A stretch of 64,000 bases of DNA from Candidatus Obscuribacterales bacterium (GTDB lineage: Bacteria > Cyanobacteriota > Vampirovibrionia > Obscuribacterales > Obscuribacteraceae): the NCBI GenBank assembly GCA_019745415.1, contig JAIETF010000009.1, positions 64,503 to 128,502 on the forward strand, read 5' to 3'. Positions 41,325-58,731 of this stretch are shown here, one piece after another. The notes under the pieces were generated by a model, which was given only the letters and a program-made list of their open reading frames with translations, made no database searches and was not told the origin of the DNA. The stretch's first letter is position 1. Each line of letters starts with the position of its first letter. The position numbers and the translations under genes are program-made.

Positions 41325-42386
41325 CTATTTGAGCTTACGAATGGCTCGCAGCGGAGCAGTTAATTTCCACGATATAGAACTATGAATCTTATCGATTTCG
41401 TTTTGAAAATTGATATGGTCTTTTTCACGGCAGCGCTTCAGATGGTCTAGCTCGGCGATAGTGGGGCTGATATAGCGTAAAGCCAAAAATAACATCTGGG
41501 CATAATCATCCGAGAGATCAGGTCTGCCGCCGGGTATAGCTTCGGGCGCGTTGCGTCTCACTGCTTGCAGCGAAAGCCCTTGCTCGCGCACAAGATAATC
41601 AACTTGCAGGGACGAGAATTCAATCAACCTTTTGAAGTAATGGTCGAGACTTTCACCAATCTCTTCCAGATACGAATAATATTGCACACCCAGCTTGAAA
41701 CAATCGATCAAGTCACGCAAATGGCGATGATTGACCGTAGTAGTTCCGCCTTCATGTAAGCGAAAAGAACAAAGCGGCTCATTAATGAAATAGAGATCGC
41801 CTTTCTCTAAAATGCGAAACCAATACTCGAGATCGCCGAAATGGAAATAACGAGTATCGTAACCATAGCCTTTATCTTTCGCGCGAAACATACCGACAAC
41901 CGGCTCACCAAGCCGATTATCGAGGAGAATCAAACTCCAGGTGATCAGGAACTTGCCGGGGAAAACACATTCACGATTGAGAGAAGGCGCAGGCGTCTCG
42001 CCTCCTTGTCCATCGAGTATAGACTTGGCAGTGAGCACCAGCGAAACTTGCGGATGCTCATTGAGGGCGCGACGTGCCTTGGCTAGATAATGCGGAGAAA
42101 GCTTATCGTCTTGGGCGAAAGGTTTGATGAACTCTCCGGCAGCTAAATTCATACATTGGTTGTAATTGCCGAATAAACCAAGATTGCTTTCGTTCTTGTG
42201 TACCTTAAGCTGAGGAAAGCGAGCGGCGTAGTTATGCAGGATAGAAAGGCTTTCGTCGGTAGAACCGTCATCACAAGCGATCACTTCGAAGTTTTGATCG
42301 GTCTGAGCAAAGAGACTGTCCAAAGCCGACTCAAGATACTTCGCGCCGTTATAAACGGGCAAAAGAATAGATATCAAACCAGACAT
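41325..42386 (-). CDS. Family 2 glycosyltransferase
   Basis: ISILLPVYNGAKYLESALDSLFAQTDQNFEVIACDDGSTDES. Confidence 0.85.
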   Translation of the reverse strand: MSGLISILLPVYNGAKYLESALDSLFAQTDQNFEVIACDDGSTDESLSILHNYAARFPQLKVHKNESNLGLFGNYNQCMNLAAGEFIKPFAQDDKLSPHYLAKARRALNEHPQVSLVLTAKSILDGQGGETPAPSLNRECVFPGKFLITWSLILLDNRLGEPVVGMFRAKDKGYGYDTRYFHFGDLEYWFRILEKGDLYFINEPLCSFRLHEGGTTTVNHRHLRDLIDCFKLGVQYYSYLEEIGESLDHYFKRLIEFSSLQVDYLVREQGLSLQAVRRNAPEAIPGGRPDLSDDYAQMLFLALRYISPTIAELDHLKRCREKDHINFQNEIDKIHSSISWKLTAPLRAIRKLK

Positions 42387-43178
42387 TTAAGACACTGGCG
42401 CCGTAAAACGCTTCACTGCAACTTTCTCATGATGGGCCATGAGATCTTCAAAGGCATCGACGACTTCGTTCACATTACCAATCTTGACTGTGCGACCGCC
42501 ATTTAAAAGAACTGCTTGATCGCACCAAGACTTGACCATATTCATGTCATGGGTAACAAAAATGATCGTCTTGCCTGACTGCTTCATCTGCCAGATATGG
42601 TCTCTGCACTTCACCTGAAAGCTCTGATCGCCGACAGCCATAGCTTCATCAACAAGAAGAATCTCGGGCTCGACACTAACAGCGGTGGCAAATGCCAAAC
42701 GCACTATCATGCCGCTGGAATAAGTCTTTATAGGCTGATCGAAGAAATCACCAATCTCGGCAAATTCAGCGATTGACTCGACTCGCTCTTCCATTTCTTC
42801 TCTAGGAATACCAAGAATCATGCCGTTTAAAAGCACGTTCTCGCGACCGCTATAGTCGGGTTGAAAACCGGCGCCAAGCTCTAATATGGCGGTAATGCGA
42901 CCACGCCGCTCGACAATGCCGGTAGTGGGTTCAAGCACACCGGCGATTATCTGCAGAAGTGTCGATTTACCCGAACCATTCGGACCAATTAGAGCAGTGA
43001 CCCCCTTAGGAAACTGCACATTAATGTCGCGCAGAGCCCAGTACTCGCGATGACAGCAAATCTTGTTGCGAGTAATTATTTCTTTCAGGCGATCTACCGG
43101 ACGTTCGTAGATGTTGTATCTCTTCGAGACACCGGTTACTTCGACTTTAAATTGCTCTTTAGAACTTTCGGAACTCAT
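42387..43178 (-). CDS. ABC transporter ATP-binding protein, polysaccharide/teichoic-acid export type (Wzt/TagH/KpsT-like)
   Basis: GPNGSGKSTLLQIIAG, YSSGMIVRLAFA and LLVDEAMAVGD. ATG at 43178 (MSSESSKEQFKVEV...). The stop abuts the GT2 start codon. Confidence 0.85.
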   Translation of the reverse strand: MSSESSKEQFKVEVTGVSKRYNIYERPVDRLKEIITRNKICCHREYWALRDINVQFPKGVTALIGPNGSGKSTLLQIIAGVLEPTTGIVERRGRITAILELGAGFQPDYSGRENVLLNGMILGIPREEMEERVESIAEFAEIGDFFDQPIKTYSSGMIVRLAFATAVSVEPEILLVDEAMAVGDQSFQVKCRDHIWQMKQSGKTIIFVTHDMNMVKSWCDQAVLLNGGRTVKIGNVNEVVDAFEDLMAHHEKVAVKRFTAPVS

Positions 43179-43269
43179 AAGGCTTTCGGAATTAGTTCCC
43201 AAGATGCTAGCACAAAAGCTCTGCCTGCCCATGAAAAGCCTTAAATTCTCACTGGTACAAAGAGCAAAA

Positions 43270-43680
43270 TCAGGGACTATTGCCGCCTCGACCAACATTA
43301 CTGCCATCTTGTTGCATGGCTTGACGCTGGGCACGCCGAGCTTCGCGGGCTTGCTTCATGGCTTGCTTTTCGCTGTCGTCTAAGACGCCATCGCCATTGC
43401 TGTCAAAACGCTTGAGCATTTTCGCCTTGCGATCGCCGTTCTGCCCCATCTTGCCCCTGCCGCCACCACGGCGACCACGATGCCCTCGGTGACGACCACC
43501 GTGACGACCAGCCATCTGCGTGCCGTCGGCAGCCCCACCCCCAGCCCCACCTATAGATGCGCCCCCTGAGTCACCAGAAGGAGCCATGTCTTGTCCCTGG
43601 GCAAAAGCCGACCCGGCTAGACCAATTGCAGCAAAGGCAAAGAGCGAGACTACTCTTGTTAGATTGGCTGTGAAATTCAT
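43270..43680 (-). CDS. Secreted Gly/Arg-rich protein with EF-hand-like calcium loop
   Basis: Signal peptide ...GSAFAQ. GHRGRRGGGRG low-complexity segment. DSNGDGVLDDSE loop (DxNxDGxxD). Confidence 0.6.
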   Translation of the reverse strand: MNFTANLTRVVSLFAFAAIGLAGSAFAQGQDMAPSGDSGGASIGGAGGGAADGTQMAGRHGGRHRGHRGRRGGGRGKMGQNGDRKAKMLKRFDSNGDGVLDDSEKQAMKQAREARRAQRQAMQQDGSNVGRGGNSP

Positions 43681-43792: not shown

Positions 43793-44647
43793 TTAGACGA
43801 TACTGATTCGATTGACCGAAACAAAAGAGGCTTCTTCTGTCTCAATAACCTGCACAGTTGGAGGTTCGGCAGCTTTCACATAGGAGAGACCCTGATTGCT
43901 CTGCCTCAAAGCGTTATTGGCCGCATAACTGACCACCGGCGAGAAGAAAAGCGAGAGGAAGAGCTTCTCCATATCGGACCGCAGCTCACTTATATCTCTG
44001 ACGTTATTTATTGAACGCCAGAATGCCTGAGACTTGAAGGCATGCAACTGACCCTTTTCAGCCAGCAGCGGGAAAGTAACCTGTTCCTGCGAACCGCGAT
44101 CGGGCAAGAGTTCATAGATGCTTGGATCGATCACATAAATGCCGGCATTGACCCAATAGGGCAGTTCCGGTTTTTCTCTAAAAGCAGTTACCTGCCCTTT
44201 CTCGTTAAAGTCGACAACGCCGTAAGGACTGACCATGGGCACCGAAACCATGGTCACTTTGGCTTTGCGTAAATCATGATAGGCAAAAACATCGCCTAGA
44301 TTGAGATTGGTTATCGAATCGGCATTAACCACCAAAACAGGCTCGTCTGAAGCCGGCGCCAGGAAGCGCAGGGCATTTTTGACGGCGCCGCCTGAGCCCA
44401 AAGGCTCATCTTCTAAAAGATAGTTGATATTGACGCCCATAGTCTGGCCGTCTCCAAAATATTCGCGGATCATCTCATAGCGATGAGAACAAGTAATGGT
44501 GATATTGCGGATGCCGTTGGCTGAAAGCCACTGAATAAGGCAAGCAAGTAAGGGACGGCCCATCACCGAAATCATCGATGTTGGCTTGTCATCCTGCACC
44601 GGTCTCACTTTGTCACCGCTGCCTGCAAGTATCACGGCATGTTTCAT
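43793..44647 (-). CDS. Sugar-1-phosphate nucleotidyltransferase (NTP_transferase family)
   Basis: MKHAVILAGSGDKVRP...KPTSMISVMGRPLL, GSGGAVKNA and VVNADSI. About 60-aa C-terminal extension. ATG at 44647. Confidence 0.75.
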   Translation of the reverse strand: MKHAVILAGSGDKVRPVQDDKPTSMISVMGRPLLACLIQWLSANGIRNITITCSHRYEMIREYFGDGQTMGVNINYLLEDEPLGSGGAVKNALRFLAPASDEPVLVVNADSITNLNLGDVFAYHDLRKAKVTMVSVPMVSPYGVVDFNEKGQVTAFREKPELPYWVNAGIYVIDPSIYELLPDRGSQEQVTFPLLAEKGQLHAFKSQAFWRSINNVRDISELRSDMEKLFLSLFFSPVVSYAANNALRQSNQGLSYVKAAEPPTVQVIETEEASFVSVNRISIV

Positions 44648-44676
44648 GGTCTGACCCACCCTCGACGAATATACAT

Positions 44677-46428
44677 ATGCAGCATATTAAGACAGAGGCT
44701 AGCAGATCACAAAAAGAAATATTTAAGAGGGAAGGACCATGCTCTAGAATTCAAATACTCTTTGGAAAGGACTTTTGCTTGAGCGCCCACTTGCAGCAAA
44801 GTGAGGACAATAACCGCCTCTACCTGCCGGCTTTGCTGGTCGGTGTAGTCTTTGCCCTGCTTTTGGCACTCTGGTGGAGCCTAGACCACAGCTATCCTAT
44901 TTGGGATGCCGGCTCGCACTTTCAAGACGCCATCAAATACGCCGAGTTGATTCGCCACCCTAAGCTTTTGAACGGCAAATTCTGGCAGGAATTCCTCACA
45001 GTCAACTTCAACTACCCCCTCACCCAGCACTTTATTTACGGGCTTTCAAAAGCATTGTTCGGCTGCGGCAGATTTTCGGATGCTCTAGTCAATCTTTTAT
45101 TCTCGCTTACTCTTTCAATAGCGCTTGCTCTTTTGACAAAATTCTGCGGCGGCTCAAAAAAGGCCATGGCCCTTTCAATTGCCCTGATCAATTTCTATCC
45201 GGCCACAATTCAGTTCAGCCACAGCCAGATGCTAGATTTCGGACATCTGGCCCTTTCGGCTTTAGCATTGGCGGCACTGGCAGCTTTTCAGCAAAAACAA
45301 AACGGCAAAACTTTTCTTTTTTTAGCTTTGGCTCTTGCCTTAGGGGCAACGGCAAAACAGGCAGCGGCAGTCTTTCTGGTTGCCCCATCTCTTTTTCTTT
45401 TGCTTTATTTTTTTAAGCAAGGGAACTGGCGGGCAGTGGCCGGTCTTGCCACCGCCGGCGGCATCACCGCTCTGGCGCTTCTTTTATGGATTTTGCCCAA
45501 TTATAAGGCCCTAAAAGAGTGGCGCGACTATTACCAGCCTCAAACCGGCGCCTCATTGGGAGCAGCCGGGCAGGCACCGGTATTCTTCGAACATTTGAGA
45601 CTTTACCTGGAAGGGCTCGTCGGACTAATGTCGCCTCTTTTGCTCGGTCTCTTTCTTATTGCACTGGCAGTCAGTTTTAGACGGTTCAAGAAACGCAGCC
45701 TGGTGGAAAATCTGCTCCTTATTAGCGCCGTCAGTGGTATTCCTCTTATGTCTATCTTGGCGATGAACAATGCTGAGGCTCGCTATGTCATGCCGGTTCT
45801 CACATGGGCAGCCGTGCAGTCGGCCCTCCTCCTCGAAACACTGCTAGAGAAAGGCAAACTTACTAGTCTGCTTGCTGCCTGCACAATCGCTCTAGCTTTC
45901 ACTCAGTACGCGGTGCTCTCATTTAGTCCTTATCCGCTCGCCCTGGGCAAAGAGCTAACGGCTGCCGTAAAAAAATTGGCCATGGCCGAATTTGATTTCA
46001 CAGGTCCACCTTTTTCACCAAGCCCGCCCGATGATCCCTGGGGACAGCACTGGCTTATTGAAAATATCGAGAAAGACGCCGCCGGCAAGCCTGTTTTTCT
46101 AAACTTGTTGCCTAGCACCAGAGAACTGAGCGTGCACACACTGACAGTGGCCTTCAAGCTCGAAAGCAAACAGCCGGTTGCCATCTCGACTTTCAGACGC
46201 TTTACCCTAAATGGAGATGTCTTTGAATACAGCCCGGAACAACTGGCTTTTTATCAATACTATTTAGTGAAAGACGGCTATAACGGCAAACCGCTGCTAG
46301 ATGAGAGCAGCAGTAAAAACTGGAAAACACTGCTCGAAACTCTCATCGACAAGCAAAAATATGTTGAACTGGGGCGCAAAACAGTAAGCGACGGCAGCGT
46401 AATGCGACTCTACAAGCGCATTTTCTAG
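44677..46428 (+). CDS. Large polytopic membrane protein, GT-C-fold (ArnT/PMT-like) glycosyltransferase candidate
   Basis: At least ten TM helices followed by a soluble C-terminal domain of about 170 aa. This is an architecture-level call only. ATG at 44677 avoids overlap with the divergent gene. Confidence 0.45.
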   Translation: MQHIKTEASRSQKEIFKREGPCSRIQILFGKDFCLSAHLQQSEDNNRLYLPALLVGVVFALLLALWWSLDHSYPIWDAGSHFQDAIKYAELIRHPKLLNGKFWQEFLTVNFNYPLTQHFIYGLSKALFGCGRFSDALVNLLFSLTLSIALALLTKFCGGSKKAMALSIALINFYPATIQFSHSQMLDFGHLALSALALAALAAFQQKQNGKTFLFLALALALGATAKQAAAVFLVAPSLFLLLYFFKQGNWRAVAGLATAGGITALALLLWILPNYKALKEWRDYYQPQTGASLGAAGQAPVFFEHLRLYLEGLVGLMSPLLLGLFLIALAVSFRRFKKRSLVENLLLISAVSGIPLMSILAMNNAEARYVMPVLTWAAVQSALLLETLLEKGKLTSLLAACTIALAFTQYAVLSFSPYPLALGKELTAAVKKLAMAEFDFTGPPFSPSPPDDPWGQHWLIENIEKDAAGKPVFLNLLPSTRELSVHTLTVAFKLESKQPVAISTFRRFTLNGDVFEYSPEQLAFYQYYLVKDGYNGKPLLDESSSKNWKTLLETLIDKQKYVELGRKTVSDGSVMRLYKRIF

Positions 46429-46439: not shown

Positions 46440-48322
46440 CTATCTAGTCGCCTCTAGCAGCAAGGTCACTTTATCATCACTGAGACGCTCTTTATCGGCA
46501 TAAGCAGGCAGGGTGGCTAAATCATTGCCGATACCCCAGATGCCTACTTTCAGAGAAGCTGTATTCTCTAGTTCCCGGCTAGAGAGCAGAATCTTATCTT
46601 GATAGAGCGTGCCGGCGGGCAGAAGGTCTTCTCGCCAAGCTCTTTTATAATCTCGACGCTTGTAATATTCATCTTTGGCAGTACGCAATTGCAATGAGAC
46701 AAAACCTTCAAGGCGCTGCTCTTTAAGAGTGCGCCATGTCAGATAGCAAATCGCACCTTCCGGTTTTCTTTCCAGTCTAGAGGCAACCAGTTCCACCTCT
46801 TCACCAAAGCGGGCCGGTCCCGCAGTAGAAACAAGAGAAGAAGCAAGTCTTGAGTCTGCATTATTCTGCTCTGCACTAACTTTCGCCACTGCGCTCTGTC
46901 CAAAATGTATAAAAAGAAGAAGAGCGGCAATGAACAAGCAATCCAGTGCCAAAAAGCAACGATTAAACCAAGCGAGGCGAGGAATTTGCCAAACCGGCTT
47001 CTTTGTTTTCCAGTAAGAAACAATTGCTTGGCGACAAGGACATTCGACGAAAACATAGAGTAAGTGACTGGCAGCGAGAACAGCTGCAGCATAAAGTGTT
47101 ATGGGCAGCCAACCTTCGTAGGTGGCAAAATGATTGTAGTAATAGTACAAGAGCAAGCGGTGCACAAGATAAACCGAAAAGCTAATCTCGCCCAAATATA
47201 CTAAGAGAGGCAAACTCAAGGCACGGCTCAGCCAGCCTCGATTGAGGGCAAAAACCACAATCGTCAAAGCGAAGGCTGGAGCGACAGTACCGGCATGATA
47301 TAGCCAGGTAAAGAGAGGGGCTTGGGCGGCAGTTTGGAAAGTGAGCAAAGCCGATAAATAATGGGCGATACGCTCGCTATAGAACGCACTTGTAATGGCT
47401 GCGGCAACTGCTACTAATTCAAAAACAGTAAAGAGTAAGGTATCTAGTTTCGCCGGTTTTGCCGCCGACGCCTGCCTGACCTCAAGAAAAGATAGTAAGC
47501 GGTTATGCCGAGCATAAACTCAAAAACACGACAAAGAGGTCCGGCATAGAGGAGTTCATGATAAGAAACCGTGCCGCAAGCCATTTCAGGTAAGTGCAGC
47601 AAGCCGCTGAGAGCCACAAAGAAAGTGACCGAAAGAAGGGTAATGGTCAAATTAGCCAGACGACGTGCGGATAAATTACTCTTCCAAATCAATAGCGGAA
47701 AAACCAGATAGAAGAAAAACTCAGCCGAAAGACTCCAACTGACACTATTGAAAGCAAAGGTAGTATCTAGTAGCGGAATCCAGGCTTGTACCAAGAGGAG
47801 CGAAGCAAGCATGTTCAAAGGACTGTAGTCGGCTTGAAACTTGGCTGGTAGAAGCAGCAGAGTTAAGAGCAAACAGGCGATGTGCAAAGGCCAAATACGA
47901 GCCAGTCGAGCCACTAAGAAGCTGGATACGAGCTGACCCCAAGCCTTCTTTTCAGAGAAAGAAGCACCGACCTTCTGTAATCTGGCGCCGTAAACAAAGC
48001 TCAAGATAAAGCCAGAAAGAACAAAGAAGAAGCTTACCCCCTGGTCGAGGGCAAAGGGTTCTAAGAACTGCGAACCAAGACCGAAATGCCCCTTCATATG
48101 GTGCAAGACAACACAAAGAGCAGCAAAGAAACGCAGCGCCGTCAATGAATCTATCTTATCTGGCTTTATCGACTCACCAGCAGATACAATCGAACCAACT
48201 TGACCAACCACGCCAGTTGGCGAGGCGACACTTTTTTCGACTTCAGCTGTTCCGACCATTAATTCCAGTACCGAACCATTTGAAAAGGTCAGCTTCGAGA
48301 AGACCCAAAGAAAGCCGACCAC
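46440..48322 (-). pseudogene. Acyltransferase family 3 gene with C-terminal extracytoplasmic domain, split by a frameshift near 47470-47520
   Basis: ORF 47444-48322 carries the AT3 N-terminus (KIDSLTALRFFAALCVVLHH). ORF 46440-47348 carries the AT3 C-terminus (YLGEISFSVYLVHRLL) plus a 170-aa domain. The second frame is already open from 47519 (VYARHNRLLSFLEVRQASAAKPAKLDTLLFTVFELVAVAAAITSAFY...) and so overlaps the end of the first. Confidence 0.6.
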
Positions 48323-48553: not shown

Positions 48554-50683
48554 ATGCTGCGACCAGGAAAAGGACCAGACCAGGGAAAAATTCGCCTGCC
48601 CAGGCAGACGGCGGCACCGGGCGTGCGCGAATTGCAAGCGCTCTATGAACAGGCAAGAGAGAACCGCGGGCGCGAAGTGGAGCTTATTTGGCAGGTTCCC
48701 GGCACCTATAAAACTTATAGCATTTTGATCAAATTCGACCGGGTCACCCCGCATCCGCTCTGGCAGGTTTGGGAAGACAACGGTAGAGAAACAAAAATGG
48801 TCTGGCGCTTTGAAACTTCAGACATAAACATGCTCTTCGACGTCATTGCCATGCTCGAAGTTACTCACCAAAAAACCACCGGCACGGTACAAACTCTTTC
48901 ACAGAGCCAGACTGGCATGAGCGCGCCCACTCCAAGAGCCACCGGGTCATTCCCAGCCCTGGGACAAACTCCAAGAGCGACCGGCTCCTTCCCGGCTATG
49001 GGCAATAATGGGCAAGCCCAGCGGTCAGGCATTGTAGGCAGCGGCGGCGCCGCCAACTCTGGGGTTTTCGGCACCAGTTCGGGTAATTACCAAAACGCCC
49101 CGCCCCAACAGCAGACAAGCGGCTGGAAGCCGGCAGAAGAAGGCAGCGCCTGGAAAGCCGCCGACCAAGGCACAGCCAGCGGCACCTGGCAAGCGGCGCC
49201 ACAAAACTCCATGCCCGGGCAGGGCATGACAGGCTGGAAACCAGCCGCCGAACCGCCGGTACCAGCGCCCGCCCCCACTGGTCTTAACCCATTGCAAGCA
49301 GCTATGGCCAATCTGGCAGCCGGTCAGCCCCTGCCAAATACACCACCCTTACCGGCCAGCCAAGCTCTTATCAAGGCAGGACAAGCCCCGGCGCCGATGG
49401 CACCGCCGGTTAATCCGCAAGTTTCGCAGCAAGCTTTGCTTGCCGGTACTTCCAATCACGGTATGCCGGAAGGCTCTTTACCAGCAGATTTCTTTTCAGA
49501 TGCACCGGCCACCATAGCCGGAGCGGCGCCTGTTAGAAGTAGCGCCATTGAAGGTCTGATCGAACAAAATCCTCTCAATACAGTGCTCACCAATATTGGT
49601 ATGCAGCAACTGACCGGCAAATTGGAATGCGTGAGCGACACAGCCGTTGCCCATGTCTATTTCGAAAACGGTATACCCAAAGACGCCCAAACCTCGACGA
49701 ACCGGGGCGATGAAGCTATAAAAGAGCTGGTTTTGTGGCGCAAAGGCAATTATCTTTTCAAACAAGGGCTGCGCACCGAAATGTCTTCGGTAGAGCGCAG
49801 TTTACAGACAGTTTTGCTGGAAGGCGTGGCCCTTTTGGACCAGCTCAAGCACCTTGAAAAAGCCGGGCTTGTCTATGAGTCGATTTTGGTGCAAAAGCAG
49901 AAAAATCTAGGCGAGCCGGAGCTCAAGCTCATGCTGTCTAAGGGACATCCCCTTGATTTTCAAACCCAAAAAGTAATTTACGATGCCCTCAGTCACAAGA
50001 AGACTTTCACCGACTTGCTGCGCGACCATCCCATGGAACAAACCCAATGGGCGCCAATCTTATTCAACCTGCTTTATTGCGGGCTGATAGAAATCAAAGC
50101 GCCGGCCGCCACCAGAGGTGGTGCGCTAGACTTTCTTGGCGAAGGCAAGCAAATAATTCAAAACCTGGCCCATCACTTTGTAAGACCAGACACAGGCATT
50201 GTCAGCTTCGAAGCCTTGCTCTATTTCTTAGAATACGAGTATTATCGTTATGAAGCCTATAACTGGCCCCTTTCGATAATTGCTTTCGAAATGAGTCTGC
50301 GCCGCCCCGGCTCTGCCATCGGCGAGACAGAGCCCTTACCTATCCAGGCTCTATCTTCGGCAGCGATGAGAATCGGTCTGGTCAAGCGTCCACTCGATTT
50401 GCTCACTCATTTCCAGGTTAATGAATTCGCCATTCTCATGCCGAACACTAAGGCTTCACAAGCAGCCTTCGTAGCCAATCGCATCCTTGACGCCCTGACC
50501 GTGACACCGCTTTCACCCGGAATCGACCGCGCCAATATTTCGCTATCTTTCGGCATCGCCAATTTGCCCTCCGACGGCGAAGATATCGAAAGCCTGCTGC
50601 AAGCGGCAGAACAAGCCAGATTGGAAGCAAGAGAGGGAACTTTCCCGATTGTCCTGGCTAGAACACTGACCACAAGACTTTAG
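48554..50683 (+). CDS. Multidomain signalling protein: unknown N-domain, Pro/Gln/Gly-rich linker, DUF4388/PATAN-like domain, degenerate GGDEF domain with intact RxxD I-site
   Basis: LTGKLECVSDTAVAHVYFENGIPKDA...GDEAIKELVLWRKGNYLF is DUF4388-like. The C-terminus RPLD-LLTHF-QVNEF-AILMPNT...SLSFGIA...AEQARLEAREG is a GGDEF fold with QVNEF replacing GGDEF. Confidence 0.65.
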   Translation: MLRPGKGPDQGKIRLPRQTAAPGVRELQALYEQARENRGREVELIWQVPGTYKTYSILIKFDRVTPHPLWQVWEDNGRETKMVWRFETSDINMLFDVIAMLEVTHQKTTGTVQTLSQSQTGMSAPTPRATGSFPALGQTPRATGSFPAMGNNGQAQRSGIVGSGGAANSGVFGTSSGNYQNAPPQQQTSGWKPAEEGSAWKAADQGTASGTWQAAPQNSMPGQGMTGWKPAAEPPVPAPAPTGLNPLQAAMANLAAGQPLPNTPPLPASQALIKAGQAPAPMAPPVNPQVSQQALLAGTSNHGMPEGSLPADFFSDAPATIAGAAPVRSSAIEGLIEQNPLNTVLTNIGMQQLTGKLECVSDTAVAHVYFENGIPKDAQTSTNRGDEAIKELVLWRKGNYLFKQGLRTEMSSVERSLQTVLLEGVALLDQLKHLEKAGLVYESILVQKQKNLGEPELKLMLSKGHPLDFQTQKVIYDALSHKKTFTDLLRDHPMEQTQWAPILFNLLYCGLIEIKAPAATRGGALDFLGEGKQIIQNLAHHFVRPDTGIVSFEALLYFLEYEYYRYEAYNWPLSIIAFEMSLRRPGSAIGETEPLPIQALSSAAMRIGLVKRPLDLLTHFQVNEFAILMPNTKASQAAFVANRILDALTVTPLSPGIDRANISLSFGIANLPSDGEDIESLLQAAEQARLEAREGTFPIVLARTLTTRL
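48932..49009 (+). repeat. Imperfect 2 x 39-bp tandem duplication (PRATGSFPA[L/M]G units)
   Basis: ccaagagccaccgggtcattcccagccctgggacaaact / ccaagagcgaccggctccttcccggctatgggcaataat. Confidence 0.6.
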
Positions 50684-50727
50684 AGCGTTCTTTAGAGAGT
50701 TCATGCACTTAAACAGGGAATTCAACG

Positions 50728-51933
50728 GTGTCGGAAGGGCAAACCATACAACTAGGCGATCTTTTGGTGAAAGCAGGGCTTTTGCCGGAAGAGAAGCTTG
50801 ATGAAGCCAGCCGTCTCGCCCTAAAAATGCGCCTGCCCATCGGTCGCATTCTCACCATGCACGGACATGTGAGCGAAGCCATCTTAGCCAAAGCCATAGA
50901 GGTGCAGGCTAGAATTAGAGACCAAGCCATAAGCATCGAACTTGGCATCAAAGCCCTGGCTCTGGTCGCCAGAGAAAATCTAGATATTGACCAGGCAGTG
51001 GAAAAGCTCACCCCAAAAGCCAAGCCTTTGCCGGTACCGACCGAAAATCGTCTCGGCGAAATAATTATGGCCGCCGGCTATGCCACTCCCAAACAAGTAC
51101 AAGAAGCCATGGTACACGCCGCCGAAACAGGGCTGCCACTAGGGATGGTGCTGGTCAGCAAGGGCATCATCACTCGCTCCGGTCTAAACTCCGCTCTCGG
51201 GGCCCAAAGACTGATTAGACTCGGCGAGAACGAAAGAGACAAGATTATCTTCGCCCTGAAAGAAGCTAGACTGCGAGCCAAGAGTTTCAGCGAGACTTTG
51301 CGCAAAAACGCCATAGACCCATCAGTACTAGAGCAAGACTTCGGTGTTGGTGAATTGCTGGTTATGGCCGGTGTACTTTCTGAAAGTCAGCTGCTTACAG
51401 CTAAAGAGCAAGAAGTGGTGGAAGGCACGCCCCTGGAAAAAGCAATCACCAACTGTGGAGCAGCCTCTGAGCCCTGCGTACAAACGGCGAATCAGCTTTT
51501 GAAAATGATCAAAGAAGGCATGCTCTTCGAAAATCAAGCCGCCAACATACTGAAAAAGATTCAGTTTGTTACCTCTTACGATGAGCTGAACAAAGTATTG
51601 GCTTCCATCGATGAAATTCAAGAAGAGATGGACGAAGAAAACGTAGAAGTTGAAATTCCCGAAATTCTCAAAAAAGCCGGTTTGCTCTCTGATAAAGAGC
51701 TGCAAATAGCCACCAATCTCGCTCTTTCAAATCGTCAGCCTTTGCTCAAGACACTTATCGACGCCAAACTGGTCAGTGAACGCAATTTGACCATTGCCAA
51801 CCAGTGCAAGGTCTATTTAGACCATAAGCTGATTCAGCCCAATCAAGCCACAATTGCAATTGTCTACGCCCTAGAAAACAACTTAACTATAGACGAAACC
51901 CTTGATAGTTTCGGCTGGTCGGCACCCGCTTGA
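50728..51933 (+). CDS. Stand-alone protein built from four tandem T2SSE_N / MshEN-like modules (no ATPase domain)
   Basis: Four repeats of the pattern xLGxxLLxxGLLxxxxLxxxLxx-5aa-xLGxxLLxxGxIxxxxLxxALxxQ. Module 2 (51049-51207) is RLGEIIMAAGYATPKQVQEAMVHA-AETGL-PLGMVLVSKGIITRSGLNSALGAQ. GTG start. Confidence 0.65.
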   Translation: MSEGQTIQLGDLLVKAGLLPEEKLDEASRLALKMRLPIGRILTMHGHVSEAILAKAIEVQARIRDQAISIELGIKALALVARENLDIDQAVEKLTPKAKPLPVPTENRLGEIIMAAGYATPKQVQEAMVHAAETGLPLGMVLVSKGIITRSGLNSALGAQRLIRLGENERDKIIFALKEARLRAKSFSETLRKNAIDPSVLEQDFGVGELLVMAGVLSESQLLTAKEQEVVEGTPLEKAITNCGAASEPCVQTANQLLKMIKEGMLFENQAANILKKIQFVTSYDELNKVLASIDEIQEEMDEENVEVEIPEILKKAGLLSDKELQIATNLALSNRQPLLKTLIDAKLVSERNLTIANQCKVYLDHKLIQPNQATIAIVYALENNLTIDETLDSFGWSAPA

Positions 51934-52288: not shown

Positions 52289-53749
52289 CTAGAACTGGAA
52301 GTAAATGAAGGGCGCCGAGTTGTCAGGCTGGAAAGTGACCATAGCTACAATCAACAAGGTGCAAAAGACAGCCTGAACAATGGCTGGAGTGCGTTGGAAG
52401 AAGCGTTTTTCGTTGAGCCAGCTCACTGGTAGGTTGGTGAGCAATAAACCAAGCACCATGATCATTACTATCGGCACAATCACCGGCATTTCCTGACGCA
52501 TAACCAGAAAATGTTCGGGAGCCCCCATGCTGTAAAAGGGACGCATGATCAGCATGCGCTTTACCATCAGAAAAGCAGCATTGATGTCTTGAATACGGAA
52601 GAAGACCCAGCCGATGCAAACCGCATGGAAAGTGAGGAAGAGAGACAAATAGTGCCAGATCTGACCGCCAATCTTGCTCTCGATAAAAGATTTGACACCA
52701 GGAATAGTGGCACGCCAAGCTGCGAATTCACGATGAACGATAAGAGCCAGTCCGTGGAAGACACCCCAAACTACAAAGTTCCAAGAAGCGCCGTGCCAGA
52801 GACCACCAAGAGCCATAGTCAAGAAAAGATTGCGATTGGTCAGCCATCTACCGCCACGCGAACCACCCAAAGGAATGAAGAGATAATCACGCAACCAGGT
52901 CGATAGCGAGACATGCCAGCGGTGCCAGAAATCAGCCATATTGGCGGCGATATAGGGCATGTTGAAGTTGATTGGAATATGATAGCCGAAGAGCAGAGCA
53001 GAACCGCGTCCTACATCTGTATAACCGGAAAAGTCAAAATAAATCTGGAAGGCGAAAGCATAGGCAAAGAGCCATAATTCAGGGCCGCTGTATAGTTCGG
53101 GATGTTCCATGCCCATCTGCACAAAGACCGAAAGATTGTCGGCGAGCAGAAGCTTTTTAGCCAGACCAATGATGATGAGCGGTACACCTTCGTCAAAATA
53201 GCTGAGCTTGACTTTGTTGTCGGCCTGCATCTGGGCGACGAAATCAGGGAAACGCTTGATTGGTCCGGCTATCTGGGTCGGGAAGAAAGCGGCAAACAAA
53301 GCAAAGAGCACGAAAGAATCTATCGGTTTCTTGCCGCGATAGATCTCGAACAAATAGTGAATGAACTCGAAGGTAAAAAAGGAGATGCCCAGCGGCAGAA
53401 TGATATTGAAACTCCAGTGCGGATTTTGCGCACCAAAGAAAGGAAAGAGCGCCCCCACTGAATCGGCAAAGAAATTGGCATATTTGAAGATAGCCAGGAC
53501 GACCAAGTTGATCACTATGCCGGCGCCGAGAATCTTTTTGTTGGTATGGTCTTTGACTAAATATTTGCCCCACAACCAGTTGAACAATGTGAGCGGCACG
53601 ATGAGAGCAAGAAACTGCCAGATGAAGCTTGCATAAAAGTAGTAACTGGCGACAAGCAGCATGGGCAGACGCCAAGCTCTGGGCAAGACCCAGAACAATG
53701 CCACGATGATTGGCAAGAAAACTAAATACTGCAAACTTGTGAAAAGCAT
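52289..53749 (-). CDS. MBOAT-family membrane O-acyltransferase (AlgI/DltB/PatA-like)
   Basis: FWHRWHVSLSTWLRDYLFIPLGGSRGG with the catalytic His context. At least ten TM helices. The C-terminus ends ...SAPFIYFQF. Confidence 0.9.
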   Translation of the reverse strand: MLFTSLQYLVFLPIIVALFWVLPRAWRLPMLLVASYYFYASFIWQFLALIVPLTLFNWLWGKYLVKDHTNKKILGAGIVINLVVLAIFKYANFFADSVGALFPFFGAQNPHWSFNIILPLGISFFTFEFIHYLFEIYRGKKPIDSFVLFALFAAFFPTQIAGPIKRFPDFVAQMQADNKVKLSYFDEGVPLIIIGLAKKLLLADNLSVFVQMGMEHPELYSGPELWLFAYAFAFQIYFDFSGYTDVGRGSALLFGYHIPINFNMPYIAANMADFWHRWHVSLSTWLRDYLFIPLGGSRGGRWLTNRNLFLTMALGGLWHGASWNFVVWGVFHGLALIVHREFAAWRATIPGVKSFIESKIGGQIWHYLSLFLTFHAVCIGWVFFRIQDINAAFLMVKRMLIMRPFYSMGAPEHFLVMRQEMPVIVPIVMIMVLGLLLTNLPVSWLNEKRFFQRTPAIVQAVFCTLLIVAMVTFQPDNSAPFIYFQF

Positions 53750-53844: not shown

Positions 53845-54738
53845 TTATCTTAATTTGTACATGGCGATACGCAGATAAGCCAGCGACATCAAACCGCAAT
53901 AGGCGATGCCGTCCAGCCACCAGCGACCGCCGCGATAGTGCTTATGCCAAAAGCGATAGAGCCCTTTGTGCGATGAAATAATCATCGGCACCTTCACCTG
54001 CTTTATCGACTGGCCGTAATGATGCACAACCTGAGCACTGGGCGTAAACCAGATTTCGTAACCGCTTTGAATAATGCGAAAGCACCAATCAACTTCTTCG
54101 AATAGCATGAAATAACCTTCATCGAGGCTTCCCACTTTCTCAAAAATCTCGCGTTTGACCATCAAGCAAGCGCCCTCAGGTTGGTCGACACAGCGCTCAT
54201 CATCATGGTTCCAGTCAAGCATCTTATAGCGGCGAAACTCTTTGCCGAATTTGCTTGAGGCTGGGAAGAGCCTGGATAGACCAAGAAGCTCATAGAGCAT
54301 GCCGGTAAAAGTAGGAAACTCGCGGCAAGATCTCTGAATGGAGCCGTCGCTGTTGAGCAATTGCGGCGCCACAACGCCGCAGCGCGGGTGCTTAGCAAAG
54401 AACCGCAACAGAGTGGCCAGGGCTCCCGGCTTGATTTCGGTATCGGGATTGAGCAGAAGAATATAGTCGCCGCCGGCTAGTTTGAAAGCCTGATTGTTAG
54501 CTTTGGCAAAGCCCAAATTTTGATCGTTGGCAATAAGATGCACCCAAGGGTGCTCGCTTCTAGCCATATCAGCCGAGCCATCGGCCGAAGCATTGTCGAC
54601 AAGGAAGACCTCTACGTCGTTATGCGAGGCAAAATCGCTTTCAGACTTTAGCCTCTCAATCTCAGCCTGCAGAGCCACAAGACAGGCCCGCAAGAGATCT
54701 CTAGTATTCCAACTGACGATTACGATAGATAAGAGCAT
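53845..54738 (-). CDS. Family 2 glycosyltransferase (rhamnosyltransferase/WbbL-like)
   Basis: LSIVIVSWNTRDLL..., VDNASADGS and NLGFAKANNQA...LLLNPDTE. Confidence 0.85.
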   Translation of the reverse strand: MLLSIVIVSWNTRDLLRACLVALQAEIERLKSESDFASHNDVEVFLVDNASADGSADMARSEHPWVHLIANDQNLGFAKANNQAFKLAGGDYILLLNPDTEIKPGALATLLRFFAKHPRCGVVAPQLLNSDGSIQRSCREFPTFTGMLYELLGLSRLFPASSKFGKEFRRYKMLDWNHDDERCVDQPEGACLMVKREIFEKVGSLDEGYFMLFEEVDWCFRIIQSGYEIWFTPSAQVVHHYGQSIKQVKVPMIISSHKGLYRFWHKHYRGGRWWLDGIAYCGLMSLAYLRIAMYKLR

Positions 54739-54883: not shown

Positions 54884-55474
54884 GTGTTTGTGGGACTTTT
54901 AGATAGCCTAATGCTTGCCAAGAGACTTACCGACTTTATCATTTCCGCTTCCGCCCTGGTGGTATTGGCACCAATACTCATTCTTATCGCCTTGGCCATC
55001 AAGCTAGATTCAAAAGGTCCAGTTATCTTTAAGCAGCGAAGAGTGGGTCAAAACGGCGAATTCTTTGAAATTTATAAATTTCGCACCATGCGCACAGGTA
55101 CGCCGGATCTGCCCACAGACCAGATGCTCAAACTACCCAGCCCTATAACCAGGGTAGGAAATTTCCTGCGCAAAACCAGTCTAGATGAGCTTCCGCAGCT
55201 ATTCAATGTCCTTTCAGGACAGATGAGCTTAGTAGGACCTAGGCCGGCTCTGTATAATCAACTGGAATTGACGGAGCGGAGAAAGGACGAAGGGGTCCTT
55301 AAGTTTCTCCCCGGCATAACTGGTTGGGCCCAGGTCAATGGCAGAGACGAACTTCCCGATGAAGTCAAAGTCAAAGCCGACAAGTGGTACTGCGATCACT
55401 GGAGTTACTGGCTCGATTTGCGCATTATATTTATGACGTTCGGCGCGGTGTTCAGCAAGAAAGGAGCCAATTGA
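54884..55474 (+). CDS. Monotopic phosphoglycosyl transferase (bacterial sugar transferase, PglC/WbaP C-terminal type); priming enzyme
   Basis: DFIISASALVVLAPILILIALAIKLDSKGPVIFKQRRVG...YKFRTM...DELPQLFNVLSGQMSLVGPRP. GTG start; alternative ATG at 54911. Confidence 0.85.
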   Translation: MFVGLLDSLMLAKRLTDFIISASALVVLAPILILIALAIKLDSKGPVIFKQRRVGQNGEFFEIYKFRTMRTGTPDLPTDQMLKLPSPITRVGNFLRKTSLDELPQLFNVLSGQMSLVGPRPALYNQLELTERRKDEGVLKFLPGITGWAQVNGRDELPDEVKVKADKWYCDHWSYWLDLRIIFMTFGAVFSKKGAN

Positions 55475-55499: not shown

Positions 55500-56573
55500 A
55501 TGAAAGGTCTAATATTGAGCGGCGGAAAAGGCACAAGAATGCGCCCGATCACACATACAGCCGCCAAGCAGCTTCTACCCGTGGCCAACAAGCCTATTTT
55601 GTTTTACGGCATCGAAGCCCTCATCGATGCAGGTATCAAGGAAATAGGCATCATCATCAGCCCAGAAACCGGCAATGATGTGAAAGAATGCGTCGGCGAC
55701 GGCAGCCGCTGGGGCATAAAAATAGATTACATTCTGCAGGCTGAACCACTCGGACTCGCCCATGCAGTCAAGACAGCGAGAGACTTCCTGAAAGATTCTC
55801 CCTTTGTTATGTACTTGGGCGACAACTTGATCAAAGATGGGGTCGGACCTTTGGTGGAGCGCTTCAAGCAAGGCGGCGCCGATGCCTTCATTCTGCTCAA
55901 AGAAGTGGCTAATCCTAGTTCTTTCGGCGTGGCGCTTCTTGATCCGGATGGTCGCATCAACTGCCTGGAAGAAAAACCGGCCAAACCTAAGAGCAATCTA
56001 GCCCTAGTTGGTGTTTATCTTTTCAACCCTAAAATTCACGTAGCTATAGACCGCATCAAGCCCAGCAAACGAGGCGAGTTGGAAATTACCGACGCCATTC
56101 AAGAGCTGATCAATACCGGAAACCGCGTCGACAGTCACATTCTCACATCGTGGTGGTTGGACACCGGTAAAAAAGACGACATGCTCGAAGCCAATCGCGT
56201 CGTTTTAGACGAAATGACCGACGTAGCCATGAACGGCGATTTGGACGGGAGCTCGCGAGTATCAGGTCGCGTACAAATCGGCAAGGGCAGCAAGCTGATC
56301 AACTGCACAGTCAGGGGCCCGGCTGTCATCGGCGAAAACTGCCACCTAGAAAACAGCTATGTCGGTCCCTTCACATCAATCGGCGACGGCGCCCGGGTCA
56401 GCCATGCCGAAATAGAACACTGCATTTTGCGTGAGAAGTGCCAGATCATGGAATTCCATGGACGCATTGCCGACAGTTTGATTGGTGTAAATGTGGAGCT
56501 GACTCGCTCAAACAACAAACCACATGCATTTCGCCTCATGATCGGCGACGACTCTAAAGTGGAAGTAGTCTAG
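55500..56573 (+). CDS. rfbA: Glucose-1-phosphate thymidylyltransferase, long form with C-terminal beta-helix
   Basis: MKGLILSGGKGTRMRPITHTAAKQLLPVANKP. At 357 aa it has LbH-type repeats at the C-terminus. First gene of the dTDP-rhamnose set. Confidence 0.8.
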   Translation: MKGLILSGGKGTRMRPITHTAAKQLLPVANKPILFYGIEALIDAGIKEIGIIISPETGNDVKECVGDGSRWGIKIDYILQAEPLGLAHAVKTARDFLKDSPFVMYLGDNLIKDGVGPLVERFKQGGADAFILLKEVANPSSFGVALLDPDGRINCLEEKPAKPKSNLALVGVYLFNPKIHVAIDRIKPSKRGELEITDAIQELINTGNRVDSHILTSWWLDTGKKDDMLEANRVVLDEMTDVAMNGDLDGSSRVSGRVQIGKGSKLINCTVRGPAVIGENCHLENSYVGPFTSIGDGARVSHAEIEHCILREKCQIMEFHGRIADSLIGVNVELTRSNNKPHAFRLMIGDDSKVEVV

Positions 56574-56605
56574 AGAGCACACCGTTAAGTTAAATAATTC
56601 TGAGC

Positions 56606-56633
56606 AATTTAAGGCGCTATAGCGCCTTAAATT
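56606..56633. promoter_or_regulatory. Perfect 28-bp palindrome between rfbA and rfbB (hairpin or operator)
   Basis: AATTTAAGGCGC-TATA-GCGCCTTAAATT. Starts 32 nt after the rfbA stop and ends 88 nt before the rfbB ATG. Confidence 0.5.
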
Positions 56634-56721
56634 ACCCGTTTTCGCTTGATCCGAAGCACCTTTCAAGTGGAAAATTGCATATCTGTAGAAGACCCGTATT
56701 TTGAATCACGAGGAAATTTCG

Positions 56722-57783
56722 ATGAGACTTCTCATTACCGGCGGATTGGGCTTTATCGGCAGCAATCTTGTTAGATACTTGCTTGAGACCCATCCCGACT
56801 ATGAAATCATCAATCTCGACGCCGAGACCTATGCCGGTCACAGAGAAAATCTGGCCGACGTAGACAAAAATCCCAAGTACAAATTGGTAGTCGGCCGCGT
56901 CGAAGACGAGAAGCTGGTTGATGAAATAGTCTCTGGTAAGAAATTCGGCACCATCGACGGCATAATCAACTTGGCTGCTGAAAGCCATGTCGACCGCTCC
57001 ATCTCAGACCCCTTTGTTTTTGTGAAGAGCAATGTCATGGGCACCCATGTGCTACTCGACGCCGCCTTCAGACACGGTCTAAAAGCCGGCGCCAGCCAGC
57101 CCTATAAGCCGGAAGATTACACAATCAAATATGTCCAGGTCTCGACCGACGAAGTTTATGGATCTCTGGGACCGGAAGGTCTCTTCACCGAAGAAACCCC
57201 GCTTCAACCGAATAGCCCTTATTCTGCCAGTAAGGCATCGGCCGATATGCTCTGCCGGGCTTACTTCCATACCTATGGCATGCCCACCGTCATCACCCGT
57301 TGTTCCAACAACTACGGACCCTATCAGCATCCCGAAAAGCTAATTCCTCTTTTCATCACCAATCTGCTCAAGGGCGAGAAAGTACCGGTTTACGGCGATG
57401 GTCTCAATGTCAGAGATTGGTTGCAAGTGGAAGACCACTGTTCAGCCATCGATCTAGCCTTCCACAAAGGCGTTCCGGGCGAAGTCTACAACGTAGGCGG
57501 TCATAATGAGCGCACCAATATGTACATAACCAAACTAATCATTTCTGAACTGGGCAAAGGCGAAGAGATGATCAAATACGTACAAGACAGACTGGGCCAC
57601 GACCGTCGCTATGCCATCGACTCCAGCAAAATTCAAAAGGAACTGGGCTGGAAGCCGAAACACACATTCGAAACCGGTATCAGAGCCACTATCAAGTGGT
57701 ACACCGAGAACACCGAGTGGGTAAATACCGTCAGCACGCCTCACAAAGAAGCGGTGCGCGAACTGGCCAAGACAACTCACTAA
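56722..57783 (+). CDS. rfbB: dTDP-glucose 4,6-dehydratase
   Basis: LLITGGLGFIGSNLVRY, STDEVYG and YSASKASADML. ATG at 56722 is preceded by GAGGA. Confidence 0.9.
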   Translation: MRLLITGGLGFIGSNLVRYLLETHPDYEIINLDAETYAGHRENLADVDKNPKYKLVVGRVEDEKLVDEIVSGKKFGTIDGIINLAAESHVDRSISDPFVFVKSNVMGTHVLLDAAFRHGLKAGASQPYKPEDYTIKYVQVSTDEVYGSLGPEGLFTEETPLQPNSPYSASKASADMLCRAYFHTYGMPTVITRCSNNYGPYQHPEKLIPLFITNLLKGEKVPVYGDGLNVRDWLQVEDHCSAIDLAFHKGVPGEVYNVGGHNERTNMYITKLIISELGKGEEMIKYVQDRLGHDRRYAIDSSKIQKELGWKPKHTFETGIRATIKWYTENTEWVNTVSTPHKEAVRELAKTTH

Positions 57784-57797
57784 ATTAGGCGCAGGAA

Positions 57798-58679
57798 GTG
57801 ACTGAAGATCTTAAGCGACAAAAAATACTTGTCACCGGTGCTGGTGGCATGTTGGGCAGCGCCCTCGCCCCCTGTCTCAAGAAAAGGGGACATGAAGTCG
57901 TAGCGCTGCCCAAAGAAGACCTAGACGTCACTAGCTATGCTCAGGTAGGAAGCACTCTCAAAGGTGTCAGACCCGAGCTGGTGATTCACTGTGCAGCCTA
58001 TACCAAGGTAGACCAGGCCGAGTCTGAACCCGGCCTGGCTTACCTAATCAACGGTTATGGCAGCGAAAATCTAGCGCTTGCCGCTCAAGCTCTAGATATC
58101 CCGGTTGTCTATATTAGTTCAGACTATGTTTTCGACGGCGAACAAACCAGCCCCTACACCACCTGGGACAAAACTCGCCCGCTTTCAATCTATGGCAAGT
58201 CTAAGCTAGCCGGTGAAGAAGCCATTCAAAGACATCTGAACAAGTTTTATATTGTCAGGACAAGCTGGCTTTATGGACCGAACGGACCAAACTTTGTAGA
58301 TACAATCAGCCGCATGGCCAAAGAAGGCAAACCACTGAAAGTGGTCTGTGACCAGATTGGCACGCCCACCTGCACTCTTACCTTATCGGAATATCTTGCC
58401 GATCTTATCGCCACAGGCAGATATGGTGTTTATCACGCCACCGACGAAGGCGTTACCAACTGGTACGAATTCGCCAAAGAGATTGTGAAAGACTTGAAAG
58501 TAGAAGTTTCGCCCATAGAAACAAAAGACTTCCCAAGACCGGCAACCAGACCAAAATACTCAGTGCTTGACAAAACCACTCTGGTGCACACAATCGGCAA
58601 AGAGTTAACACCCTGGAAAAAGGCTCTTGCTGATTATCTCGCCTCGGTAAGAGAGGCACAGAAAGCAGCCAGTCACTAA
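57798..58679 (+). CDS. rfbD: dTDP-4-dehydrorhamnose reductase
   Basis: ILVTGAGGMLGSAL...YGKSKLAGE...RTSWLYG. GTG start after AGGAA. Confidence 0.9.
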   Translation: MTEDLKRQKILVTGAGGMLGSALAPCLKKRGHEVVALPKEDLDVTSYAQVGSTLKGVRPELVIHCAAYTKVDQAESEPGLAYLINGYGSENLALAAQALDIPVVYISSDYVFDGEQTSPYTTWDKTRPLSIYGKSKLAGEEAIQRHLNKFYIVRTSWLYGPNGPNFVDTISRMAKEGKPLKVVCDQIGTPTCTLTLSEYLADLIATGRYGVYHATDEGVTNWYEFAKEIVKDLKVEVSPIETKDFPRPATRPKYSVLDKTTLVHTIGKELTPWKKALADYLASVREAQKAASH

Positions 58680-58731
58680 TGTTATAATTGCCGAGTCGTA
58701 GTAGCCGCCAACACATTAACAGTCGATAATT

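Follow-up and report, generated by a model that had tools for sequence, protein, structure and literature searches.

The locus described here raises the question of what is done by a protein with a decayed GGDEF active site and by a neighbour made only of MshEN-type helical repeats, encoded together among glycan genes. The two genes, called A and B below, lie in a stretch of 64,000 nucleotides from a Candidatus Obscuribacterales bacterium (GenBank assembly GCA_019745415.1, contig JAIETF010000009.1, positions 64,503 to 128,502 of the forward strand), which is referred to as the window and to which all coordinates apply. A first-pass annotation of this sequence had proposed that the pair senses cyclic diguanylate (c-di-GMP) and controls the production of the locus polysaccharide or of pili. 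The present analysis found that A and B are one unit of coupled genes, and that A is devoid of cyclase chemistry and retains the residues R612, D615 and R643 of the inhibitory c-di-GMP site (I-site). The preferred reading, which has about an even chance of being correct, is that both proteins constitute a lineage-specific two-subunit c-di-GMP adaptor of the Obscuribacterales, most likely acting on envelope glycan assembly.

Gene A (48554-50683, forward strand) encodes a protein of 709 amino acids from an ATG codon and gene B (50728-51933, forward strand) one of 401 amino acids from a GTG codon, according to the list of open reading frames (ORFs), with 44 nucleotides between the stop of A and the start of B. 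Both starts are credible because the N-termini of the two proteins agree with those of their homologues, and the sequence AGGGA is found 8 nucleotides upstream of the GTG codon of B; scans for promoters and terminators gave nothing above background level. The ORFs and the gap given in the first-pass annotation, as well as its positions for the motifs RPLD and QVNEF of A and for module 2 of B (residues 108-160), were all exact. The closest relatives of A and B are found in metagenome-assembled genomes (MAGs) of Candidatus Obscuribacter phosphatis (97-98% identity). Among the 81 homologues of A, all those with source names are labelled Melainabacteria, Obscuribacterales or Cyanobacteria, and nearly all matches in genome collections are labelled Obscuribacterales, Melainabacteria or cyanobacteria, with a few MAG records carrying another or no taxon label. 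Melainabacteria and Obscuribacterales are a non-photosynthetic sister lineage of the cyanobacteria.

The C-terminal part of A (residues 531-701, 50144-50656, forward strand) is predicted to adopt a complete but catalytically degenerate GGDEF fold, as judged from the structural model, Foldseek and profile comparisons. The Pfam GGDEF profile (PF00990) matched residues 599-694 with 38 bits (cutoff 23.8), covering the C-terminal two-thirds of the domain, the GGDEF-type matches in NCBIfam were all below threshold, and the profile of the A family aligned with the solved GGDEF domain 3ign (E 6e-11) over almost the whole domain. In the AlphaFold model of A (m119fe892061a), built from an alignment of 35 sequences, this domain superposed on isolated GGDEF domains with template modelling (TM) scores of 0.76-0.81 in Foldseek. 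The position of the GG[DE]EF active site is occupied by QVNEF (residues 621-625, 50414-50428, forward strand), which aligns to GGEEF. Across 35 homologues of A the same position reads QVNEF, YGQDF, ESTEY or EAVDY and never contains GG, and the pattern G[GAS][DE]EF was found in no A orthologue across 44 loci. The metal-binding DxD site of 3ign (DID) and its guanine-binding Asn and Asp align in A to FEMS, S587 and P596, respectively. Since the GG positions vary freely and the metal- and guanine-binding residues have been replaced, A cannot be a cyclase.

While the active-site residues drift, those of the I-site survive. The RxxD motif RPLD (R612-D615, 50387-50398, forward strand) lies exactly five residues before QVNEF and aligns to RQSD of 3ign, and the equivalent of the second I-site arginine in the same alignment is R643 (50480-50482, forward strand). 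Across the 35 homologues, which go down to 38% identity, conservation of the stretch K611-R612-P613-L614-D615 and of R643 is at least 90%, which upholds the earlier description of a degenerate QVNEF active site with RPLD five residues upstream. RPLD also aligns to RAID of PleD, and R643 (AERIR against ANRIL) to its R390, in a phmmer comparison with PleD; the position of R643 is also that of R402 of PelD. At the sequence level, a dead site with three kept I-site residues is the signature of degenerate-GGDEF receptors, and A would bind c-di-GMP at its I-site. The segment beside the I-site is also highly conserved, so that conservation alone is no proof of ligand binding by A.

Four further regions of A precede this domain, all on the forward strand. 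The N-terminal domain (residues 8-105, 48575-48868) was modelled as an alpha/beta fold (beta-alpha-beta4-alpha) with a predicted local distance difference test score (pLDDT) of about 92 and is conserved across the family; it gave no match in Pfam or NCBIfam, and a word-based search with it returned short fragments of A itself and nothing else. A linker predicted to be disordered follows (residues 106-330, 48869-49543, pLDDT below 50), rich in Pro, Ala, Gly and Gln (31 Pro, 22 Gln, 28 Gly) and with 4 Trp, which varies in length and sequence among homologues, as seen in the variable alignment columns, and whose DNA contains one 27-nucleotide repeat in two copies (49118-49172). This composition and the low pLDDT agree with the Trp-containing Pro/Gln/Gly-rich linker of the first-pass annotation. 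A short conserved motif, PEGSLPADFFS (residues 305-315, 49466-49498), ends the disordered linker; most A homologues keep it, and several of the most distant ones lack it or have a diverged form. The PATAN domain (DUF4388/PatA_N; residues 332-436, 49547-49861) was assigned by Pfam and by the model, with PF14332 matching residues 334-431 at 36.4 bits (cutoff 25), and DUF4388 was found in all 80 close homologues of A (P0049-P0128). This domain lacks the alpha-clip insertion: 98 residues cover profile positions 2-121, and the model is beta-rich with no inserted helical pair. Both the GGDEF-fold and the DUF4388/PATAN assignments that had been proposed for A were thus borne out.

Between PATAN and the GGDEF fold lies a conserved helical middle domain (residues 444-515, 49883-50098, pLDDT 85-90), which gave no profile match in Pfam, NCBIfam or hhalign. 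No similarity was detected by hhalign between the domains of A and the modules of B, nor among the domains of A itself, so that the N-terminal and middle domains do not conceal further copies of MshEN or PATAN. When A was scanned for pairs of MshEN-type motifs, matches occurred at chance level only, and neither GAF (Pfam, E <= 1) nor Response_reg was matched in A.

Protein B consists of four MshEN_N-type modules. The NCBIfam model NF053729 ('c-di-GMP_motif, MshE-related') matched B with 100.8 bits (cutoff 38, E 2.6e-29) in 4 stretches, the best of which, residues 108-160, covers profile positions 1-53 of 53. Comparison of the four modules by hhalign, each of them about 96 residues long, showed mutual homology along some 90 residues (probability 95-99%, E 1e-8 to 1e-19). 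The model of B is all-helical (4 x 6 helices, pLDDT 79), with a short-long-short-long bundle in each module and without the alpha/beta T2SSE_N1 subdomain; the six helices per unit, together with the homology between units, indicate that each module is an MshEN_N four-helix bundle plus an extra hairpin. The four tandem modules described in the first-pass annotation were therefore recovered, and only its name for them, T2SSE_N, found no counterpart in Pfam, where nothing in B was above threshold and T2SSE_N (PF05157) gave no match at E <= 1. The sequence of module 2 matches the GSPII domains of Thermus PilF (6f8l, E 1.9e-8) and MshE of V. cholerae, and this module locally superposes on c-di-GMP-bound PilF GSPII-B (8pfa_B) with a Foldseek probability of 1.00 and a root-mean-square deviation of 1.9 Å over 56 columns. 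With the whole model of B, Foldseek returned designed helical repeats and fumarase C-termini, and the local PilF match was the sole informative one. Weak matches of B were obtained to DUF4388 at profile positions 46-76, which is the PATAN insertion region, and, for residues 7-116, to the C-terminus of NfrB in NCBIfam.

No ATPase or other domain was found in B with Pfam and NCBIfam. The first-pass annotation had regarded this as an oddity in a domain that is normally the N-terminus of an ATPase, a view that does not hold, since MshEN_N-only and tandem architectures, including a cyanobacterial stand-alone one, were catalogued in 2016. B as a truncated secretion ATPase was rejected because all of its approximately 48 homologues are roughly 400 amino acids long and have the same FGWSAP end, which is nearly invariant in their alignment (51910-51930, forward strand).

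The potential of B to bind a nucleotide was assessed by comparison with the published consensus, RLGxx[LVI][LVI]xxG[LVI][LVI]xxxxLxxxLxxQ present twice with a 5-residue spacer (the form given in the first-pass annotation, spacer included), and with the relaxed motif of the same authors, which has 11 key positions per half. The spacing of the half-motifs is exact in all four modules (forward strand). Module 2 (residues 108-160, 51049-51207) agrees with the relaxed motif at 10/11 and 11/11 positions and is the best candidate c-di-GMP site. Its fit had been called almost perfect, which stands for the relaxed motif and the spacer and fails for the strict consensus, from which half I departs at M114, Y118, A119, V124, M128 and A131 and lacks the terminal Gln. 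Module 1 (residues 8-60, 50749-50907) is intermediate (8/11 and 9/11) and reads QLG..LL..G / PIG..L..G....L...I..Q; it had been described as fitting with Q in place of the first R, and in addition to Q8 it deviates at S28, A31 and H47. This pattern of module 1 is conserved within the subfamily, and R or K occupies position 1 in the wider family. Modules 3 (residues 206-258, 51343-51501; 8/11 and 7/11) and 4 (residues 309-361, 51652-51810; 6/11 and 8/11) are degenerate, as had been stated, with the position-3 Gly of half II changed to Glu in the former and both position-3 glycines lost in the latter.

This glycine has been reported to be critical for binding, and its backbone amides contact the guanines. 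It is kept, invariant or nearly so, in module 1 (G10/G39) and in module 2 (G110/G139). The residues of module 2 that are invariant or nearly so (R108, L109, G110, G117, P137, L138, G139, G146, L153, L157 and Q160) coincide with the ligand-contacting set of MshE. Its GYAT, the Val at position 17 and the missing half-I Gln are deviations common to proven binders: the sequence GYATPxxVQEA is identical in the measured binder Bd2402, which likewise has no terminal Gln, and both Bd2402 and NfrB, whose half I ends in Arg, also miss the strict consensus. The dissociation constant (Kd) of Bd2402 is 0.04 µM in Supplementary Table 6 of Wang et al. (0.4 µM in the footnote), and isolated MshEN_N binds c-di-GMP with a Kd of 0.35 µM. 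As judged from these motifs, module 2 is a plausible c-di-GMP binder and module 1 an uncertain one, and binding by modules 3 and 4 is unlikely. In the wider B family modules 1-3 are near-canonical, module 4 is degenerate throughout, and half I ends in a small residue and never in Gln. Modules 3-4, whose motifs are degenerate, and FGWSAP are strongly conserved in sequence, in module 3 notably at positions outside the motif, which points to a second, non-nucleotide role.

A directly precedes B in every related locus that has been compared. All 45 of the 45 loci carrying a B orthologue have an A orthologue immediately upstream in the same orientation (including two whose contig contains only the end of A), a point that the first-pass annotation had asked to be checked, and the stop and start codons of both genes overlap in most of them. 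A-B fusion proteins make up 5 of the 148 newly retrieved representative relatives, with the N-terminal domain, PATAN, the middle domain, the GGDEF-like domain and the four-module array laid out in a single chain; two of these fusions were looked up and both recur in independent samples. A chance juxtaposition of A and B was rejected. The most distant B-like protein of the word-based search, P0048 (22% identity; L043/L044, 10001-11257), is not preceded by an A orthologue, and a 631-amino-acid PatA_N protein (4812-6707) is encoded 3.3 kb away from it on the opposite strand, beside RND efflux and two-component systems.

An exhaustive profile search with B against 1.84 billion representatives, in which family members are clusters at 50% identity, gave 4428 matches at E <= 1e-3, with 568 clusters reaching E <= 1e-30, and nearly all of the best 150 matches align in one stretch across all four modules. 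The family is thus far larger than the word-based search had implied. About half of 148 B relatives (P0134-P0281) are stand-alone proteins of about 400 amino acids, the longer ones carry disordered Pro/Ala/Gln tails, TPR repeats were found in 27 of the 51 long members scanned, and some relatives are membrane-anchored (e.g., P0220 and P0239). The 20 relatives that were looked up are described as 'hypothetical protein' only, with almost no taxonomy.

Glycan genes lie on both sides of the pair, as the first-pass annotation had claimed and Pfam assigned. Upstream are a glycosyltransferase of family 2 (GT2; 41325-42386, reverse strand), an ABC ATPase (42387-43334, reverse strand), an NTP_transferase (43793-44659, reverse strand), a PMT_2-type GT-C glycosyltransferase (44578-46428, forward strand) and two Acyl_transf_3 ORFs (46440-48322, reverse strand); downstream are an MBOAT protein (52289-53749, reverse strand), a GT2 (53845-54738, reverse strand), a Bac_transf priming transferase (54884-55474, forward strand) and RmlA-, RmlB-, RmlD- and RmlC-like genes (55500-59292, forward strand). 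A GT2/Bac_transf/NTP_transferase/Rml block is located 1.5-10 kb downstream of the pair in about 26 of 42 loci, and about 14 loci from several subclades have a YfhO-type GT-C gene right after B in the same orientation. In other loci GT4 pairs lie upstream, and several have a cytidylyltransferase, Ser/Thr kinases and a phosphatase among the genes that flank A and B. Glycan genes adjoin A and B in essentially all loci with enough flank.

Several other features of the window have been recorded. The Acyl_transf_3 domain is divided over two ORFs (47444-48322, profile positions 2-209; 46440-47348, positions 239-325 followed by a tail of about 200 amino acids), and the same two-part arrangement recurs in L004-L007 and L021; it may stem either from a true split or from a frameshift that has been conserved. 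The NTP_transferase and PMT_2 GT-C ORFs overlap by about 80 nucleotides at their 5' ends, and the latter gene probably starts at an ATG farther downstream. A second glycan cluster with hallmarks of nonulosonic-acid (legionaminic/pseudaminic-type) synthesis is found at 16975-23550 and includes NeuB, a UDP-N-acetylglucosamine (UDP-GlcNAc) 2-epimerase, a DegT aminotransferase, a 4,6-dehydratase, a PglD-like acetyltransferase and an Acyl_transf_3 protein. A Ser/Thr protein kinase of 852 amino acids (37712-40273, reverse strand) is fused to TPR_12/TPR_10 repeats, the TPR type present in 27 of the 51 long B relatives, and a link of this kinase to the A-B system is possible. Genes for ornithine carbamoyltransferase, argininosuccinate synthase and argininosuccinate lyase stand in a row at 30946-34575; this is arginine-biosynthesis housekeeping and is unrelated to the pair.

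According to the preferred reading, A and B would be the subunits of one cytoplasmic signalling adaptor, which is a single polypeptide in some relatives. B would sense one or possibly two molecules of c-di-GMP, in the four-helix bundle of module 2 and perhaps also in that of module 1, and A would sense c-di-GMP at its I-site. The insertion-less PATAN of A may dock on the helical modules of B, by analogy with the PATAN domain of PixE and the MshEN region of PilB1; the missing insertion and the weak DUF4388 matches of B are suggestive of this docking. Modules 3-4, together with the N-terminal domain, the linker and the PEGSLPADFFS motif of A, could serve as landing pads at which a partner is recruited or released. 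As target, the surrounding membrane glycan machinery (YfhO/PMT_2-type GT-C, GT2, GT4 and the priming transferase) would be the most likely, so that the adaptor would tie envelope or exopolysaccharide synthesis to the c-di-GMP level. Both domain types have precedents in polysaccharide control, namely NfrB and EpsG for MshEN and PelD for the degenerate GGDEF.

A number of observations weigh against this adaptor. No 24-mer in B matches the strict consensus, and PilF GSPII-A, even after its consensus had been restored, and PilB_3 of D. geothermalis do not bind, which means that motif conformity is insufficient for binding. Among the A-B fusions, RxxD is kept in 4 of 5 (the fifth has KKPVD) and the second I-site Arg is replaced in 2 of 5. 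No GGDEF, EAL or HD-GYP domain besides that of A was found in window ORFs of at least 150 amino acids, in agreement with the earlier statement that the window holds no active cyclase or phosphodiesterase, and Rfam revealed no c-di-GMP riboswitch in the window. A phmmer search of about 0.8 Mb of related loci with the PleD GGDEF domain as query matched A orthologues only, which leaves every locus without a cyclase within 10 kb of the pair. As to the output, no enzyme domain was detected among the 51 long B relatives scanned, and no fusion therefore points to a target. The immediate neighbours vary by clade (MBOAT here, spermine synthase in L001, YfhO elsewhere), which makes the link to the output circumstantial, and the glycan association may reflect regional synteny rather than function.

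The alternative that survives best, although we regard it as rather unlikely, is that A and B form a nucleotide-independent scaffold that organises partners, in which a GGDEF pseudo-enzyme is combined with alpha-clip repeats that have decayed into protein-interaction modules. Modules 3-4 would fit such a scaffold, as they have lost the essential glycines and are yet as conserved as modules 1-2, and half I lacks the terminal Gln in every module family-wide. PilF GSPII-A provides a documented non-binding 'landing pad' with a near-consensus motif, and c-di-GMP enzymes were not seen near the pair. The commonest fusion partners of B-type arrays, TPR repeats and disordered tails, are elements typical of scaffolds. 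However, the invariant residues of module 2 (RLG, PLG, the turn glycines, L153, L157 and Q160) are the exact ligand-contacting set of MshE, the RxxD motif and the second Arg of A survive while its active site drifts, and the deviations of module 2 are the same as those of proven binders.

A bolder proposal, which is tentative and unlikely as it stands, is that A and B are a split form of a general PATAN/MshEN_N ('alpha-clip') recognition module, in which the free-standing array would supply in trans the helical clip that is an insertion in other PATAN domains, and c-di-GMP at the array and the I-site would gate docking. If this were true, it would provide a mechanism by which PATAN regulators read c-di-GMP via MshEN regions, including that of PilB in phototactic cyanobacteria, and in Melainabacteria the hundreds of four-module or TPR-fused relatives would form a new class of multivalent c-di-GMP adaptors.

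A c-di-GMP-responsive adaptor with an output in type IV pili, motility or polarity, in which the PATAN of A would engage PilB/PilC in the manner of cyanobacterial PatA-type regulators and B would be a competitor or mimic of PilB's MshEN region, appears quite unlikely. A pilus or polarity output through PATAN has a precedent that is documented equally well. The appeal of this reading is that the sole experimentally defined function of PATAN is the binding of PilB1 (N-terminal half) and PilC, which sets pilus polarity, that MshEN domains are native to the PilB and MshE ATPases, and that PilF GSPII domains are the closest solved structures to the modules of B. However, neither the window nor the Pfam-annotated related loci yielded any gene for pili, a secretion ATPase or chemotaxis, and where the flank was long enough the pair had glycan genes as neighbours in essentially every locus.

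That A works as a diguanylate cyclase, constantly or under some conditions, and feeds c-di-GMP locally to B is highly improbable. The complete GGDEF fold beside a candidate receptor does recall local DgcJ-NfrB signalling, but both glycines of GGDEF are lost in every homologue, the residues aligned to the metal Asp pair and the guanine-binding Asn/Asp are not conserved, and the reading of A as an active cyclase was rejected.

In the literature library that was searched no paper was found that joins Obscuribacter with c-di-GMP, none that describes a DUF4388-GGDEF protein, and none on c-di-GMP in Melainabacteria. A conserved receptor pair would offer an initial way into second-messenger signalling in this non-photosynthetic sister group of the cyanobacteria, and the unnamed B family (568 clusters at E <= 1e-30) would add many candidate c-di-GMP receptors to a short list. 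A partnership of PATAN with MshEN, seen until now by yeast two-hybrid in Synechocystis only, gains independent genomic evidence from the strict adjacency and the fusions.

Degenerate-GGDEF I-site receptors include PelD of Pseudomonas aeruginosa, PopA and CdgA of Bdellovibrio. The first of these, encoded within the defined pel operon, is a GAF-containing membrane protein. In A, as in PelD, a dead GGDEF keeps RxxD five residues before the site and a second Arg, and polysaccharide genes lie around. Unlike PelD, A has no GAF match and its neighbours are not pel genes, and it contains a PATAN domain, an N-terminal domain and a long disordered linker and has an obligatory MshEN_N partner. PelD is listed as an inactivated-GGDEF receptor in PMC12448109.

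The catalogue of Wang et al. (2016) includes the stand-alone (MshEN_N)2 protein cce_1044 of Cyanothece, which was never assayed for binding in that work, Bd2402 of Bdellovibrio (REC-MshEN_N) and EpsG of Methylobacillus (MshEN_N-AAA_31, BY-kinase). Like these proteins, B has only the 53-residue four-helix subdomain, without T2SSE_N1 or ATPase, and in tandem copies. It differs from them in its four modules of about 96 residues with an extra hairpin, in a signature present in one or two of them, in belonging to a separate large unnamed family, and in being always paired or fused with a PATAN-GGDEF protein. NfrB of E. coli, a GT2-MshEN protein, is a c-di-GMP-activated exopolysaccharide synthase with a dedicated cyclase, DgcJ. 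B resembles it as an MshEN-type array that is a candidate for glycosyltransferase control, which in the case of B is suggested by the neighbourhood. In NfrB receptor and enzyme are one polypeptide, whereas B is separate, has no cyclase nearby and has a target guessed from its neighbours.

PilF of Thermus thermophilus binds c-di-GMP at 324 nM in GSPII-B and at 12 nM in GSPII-C, and its degenerate GSPII-A has been proposed as a landing pad. B is likewise an array of canonical and degenerate copies, and PilF is the closest solved relative of module 2; however, PilF has a C-terminal alpha/beta subdomain followed by an ATPase, whereas B is all-helical and free-standing. By yeast two-hybrid in the Synechocystis system, the PATAN of PixE binds residues 1-366 of PilB1, the N-terminal MshEN region, and the PixE authors noted that the alpha-clip insertion of PATAN resembles the N-terminal repeats of secretion ATPases and that DUF4388 and GspE_N co-occur. 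As in the PatA-type regulators (PixE, PixG and LsiR), the PATAN of A is paired with MshEN-type helical repeats. Those regulators are PATAN-REC proteins with an alpha-clip and a pilus-ATPase partner, whereas A has neither REC nor the insertion, carries a GGDEF-like domain and has a partner without ATPase.

Degenerate-GGDEF I-site receptors, MshEN_N receptors and their link to polysaccharide control were already established. The new elements are the obligatory pairing and occasional fusion of both receptor types with PATAN, the six-helix four-fold array, the size of the family and its occurrence in Melainabacteria, and the result, if confirmed, would extend known principles and overturn none.

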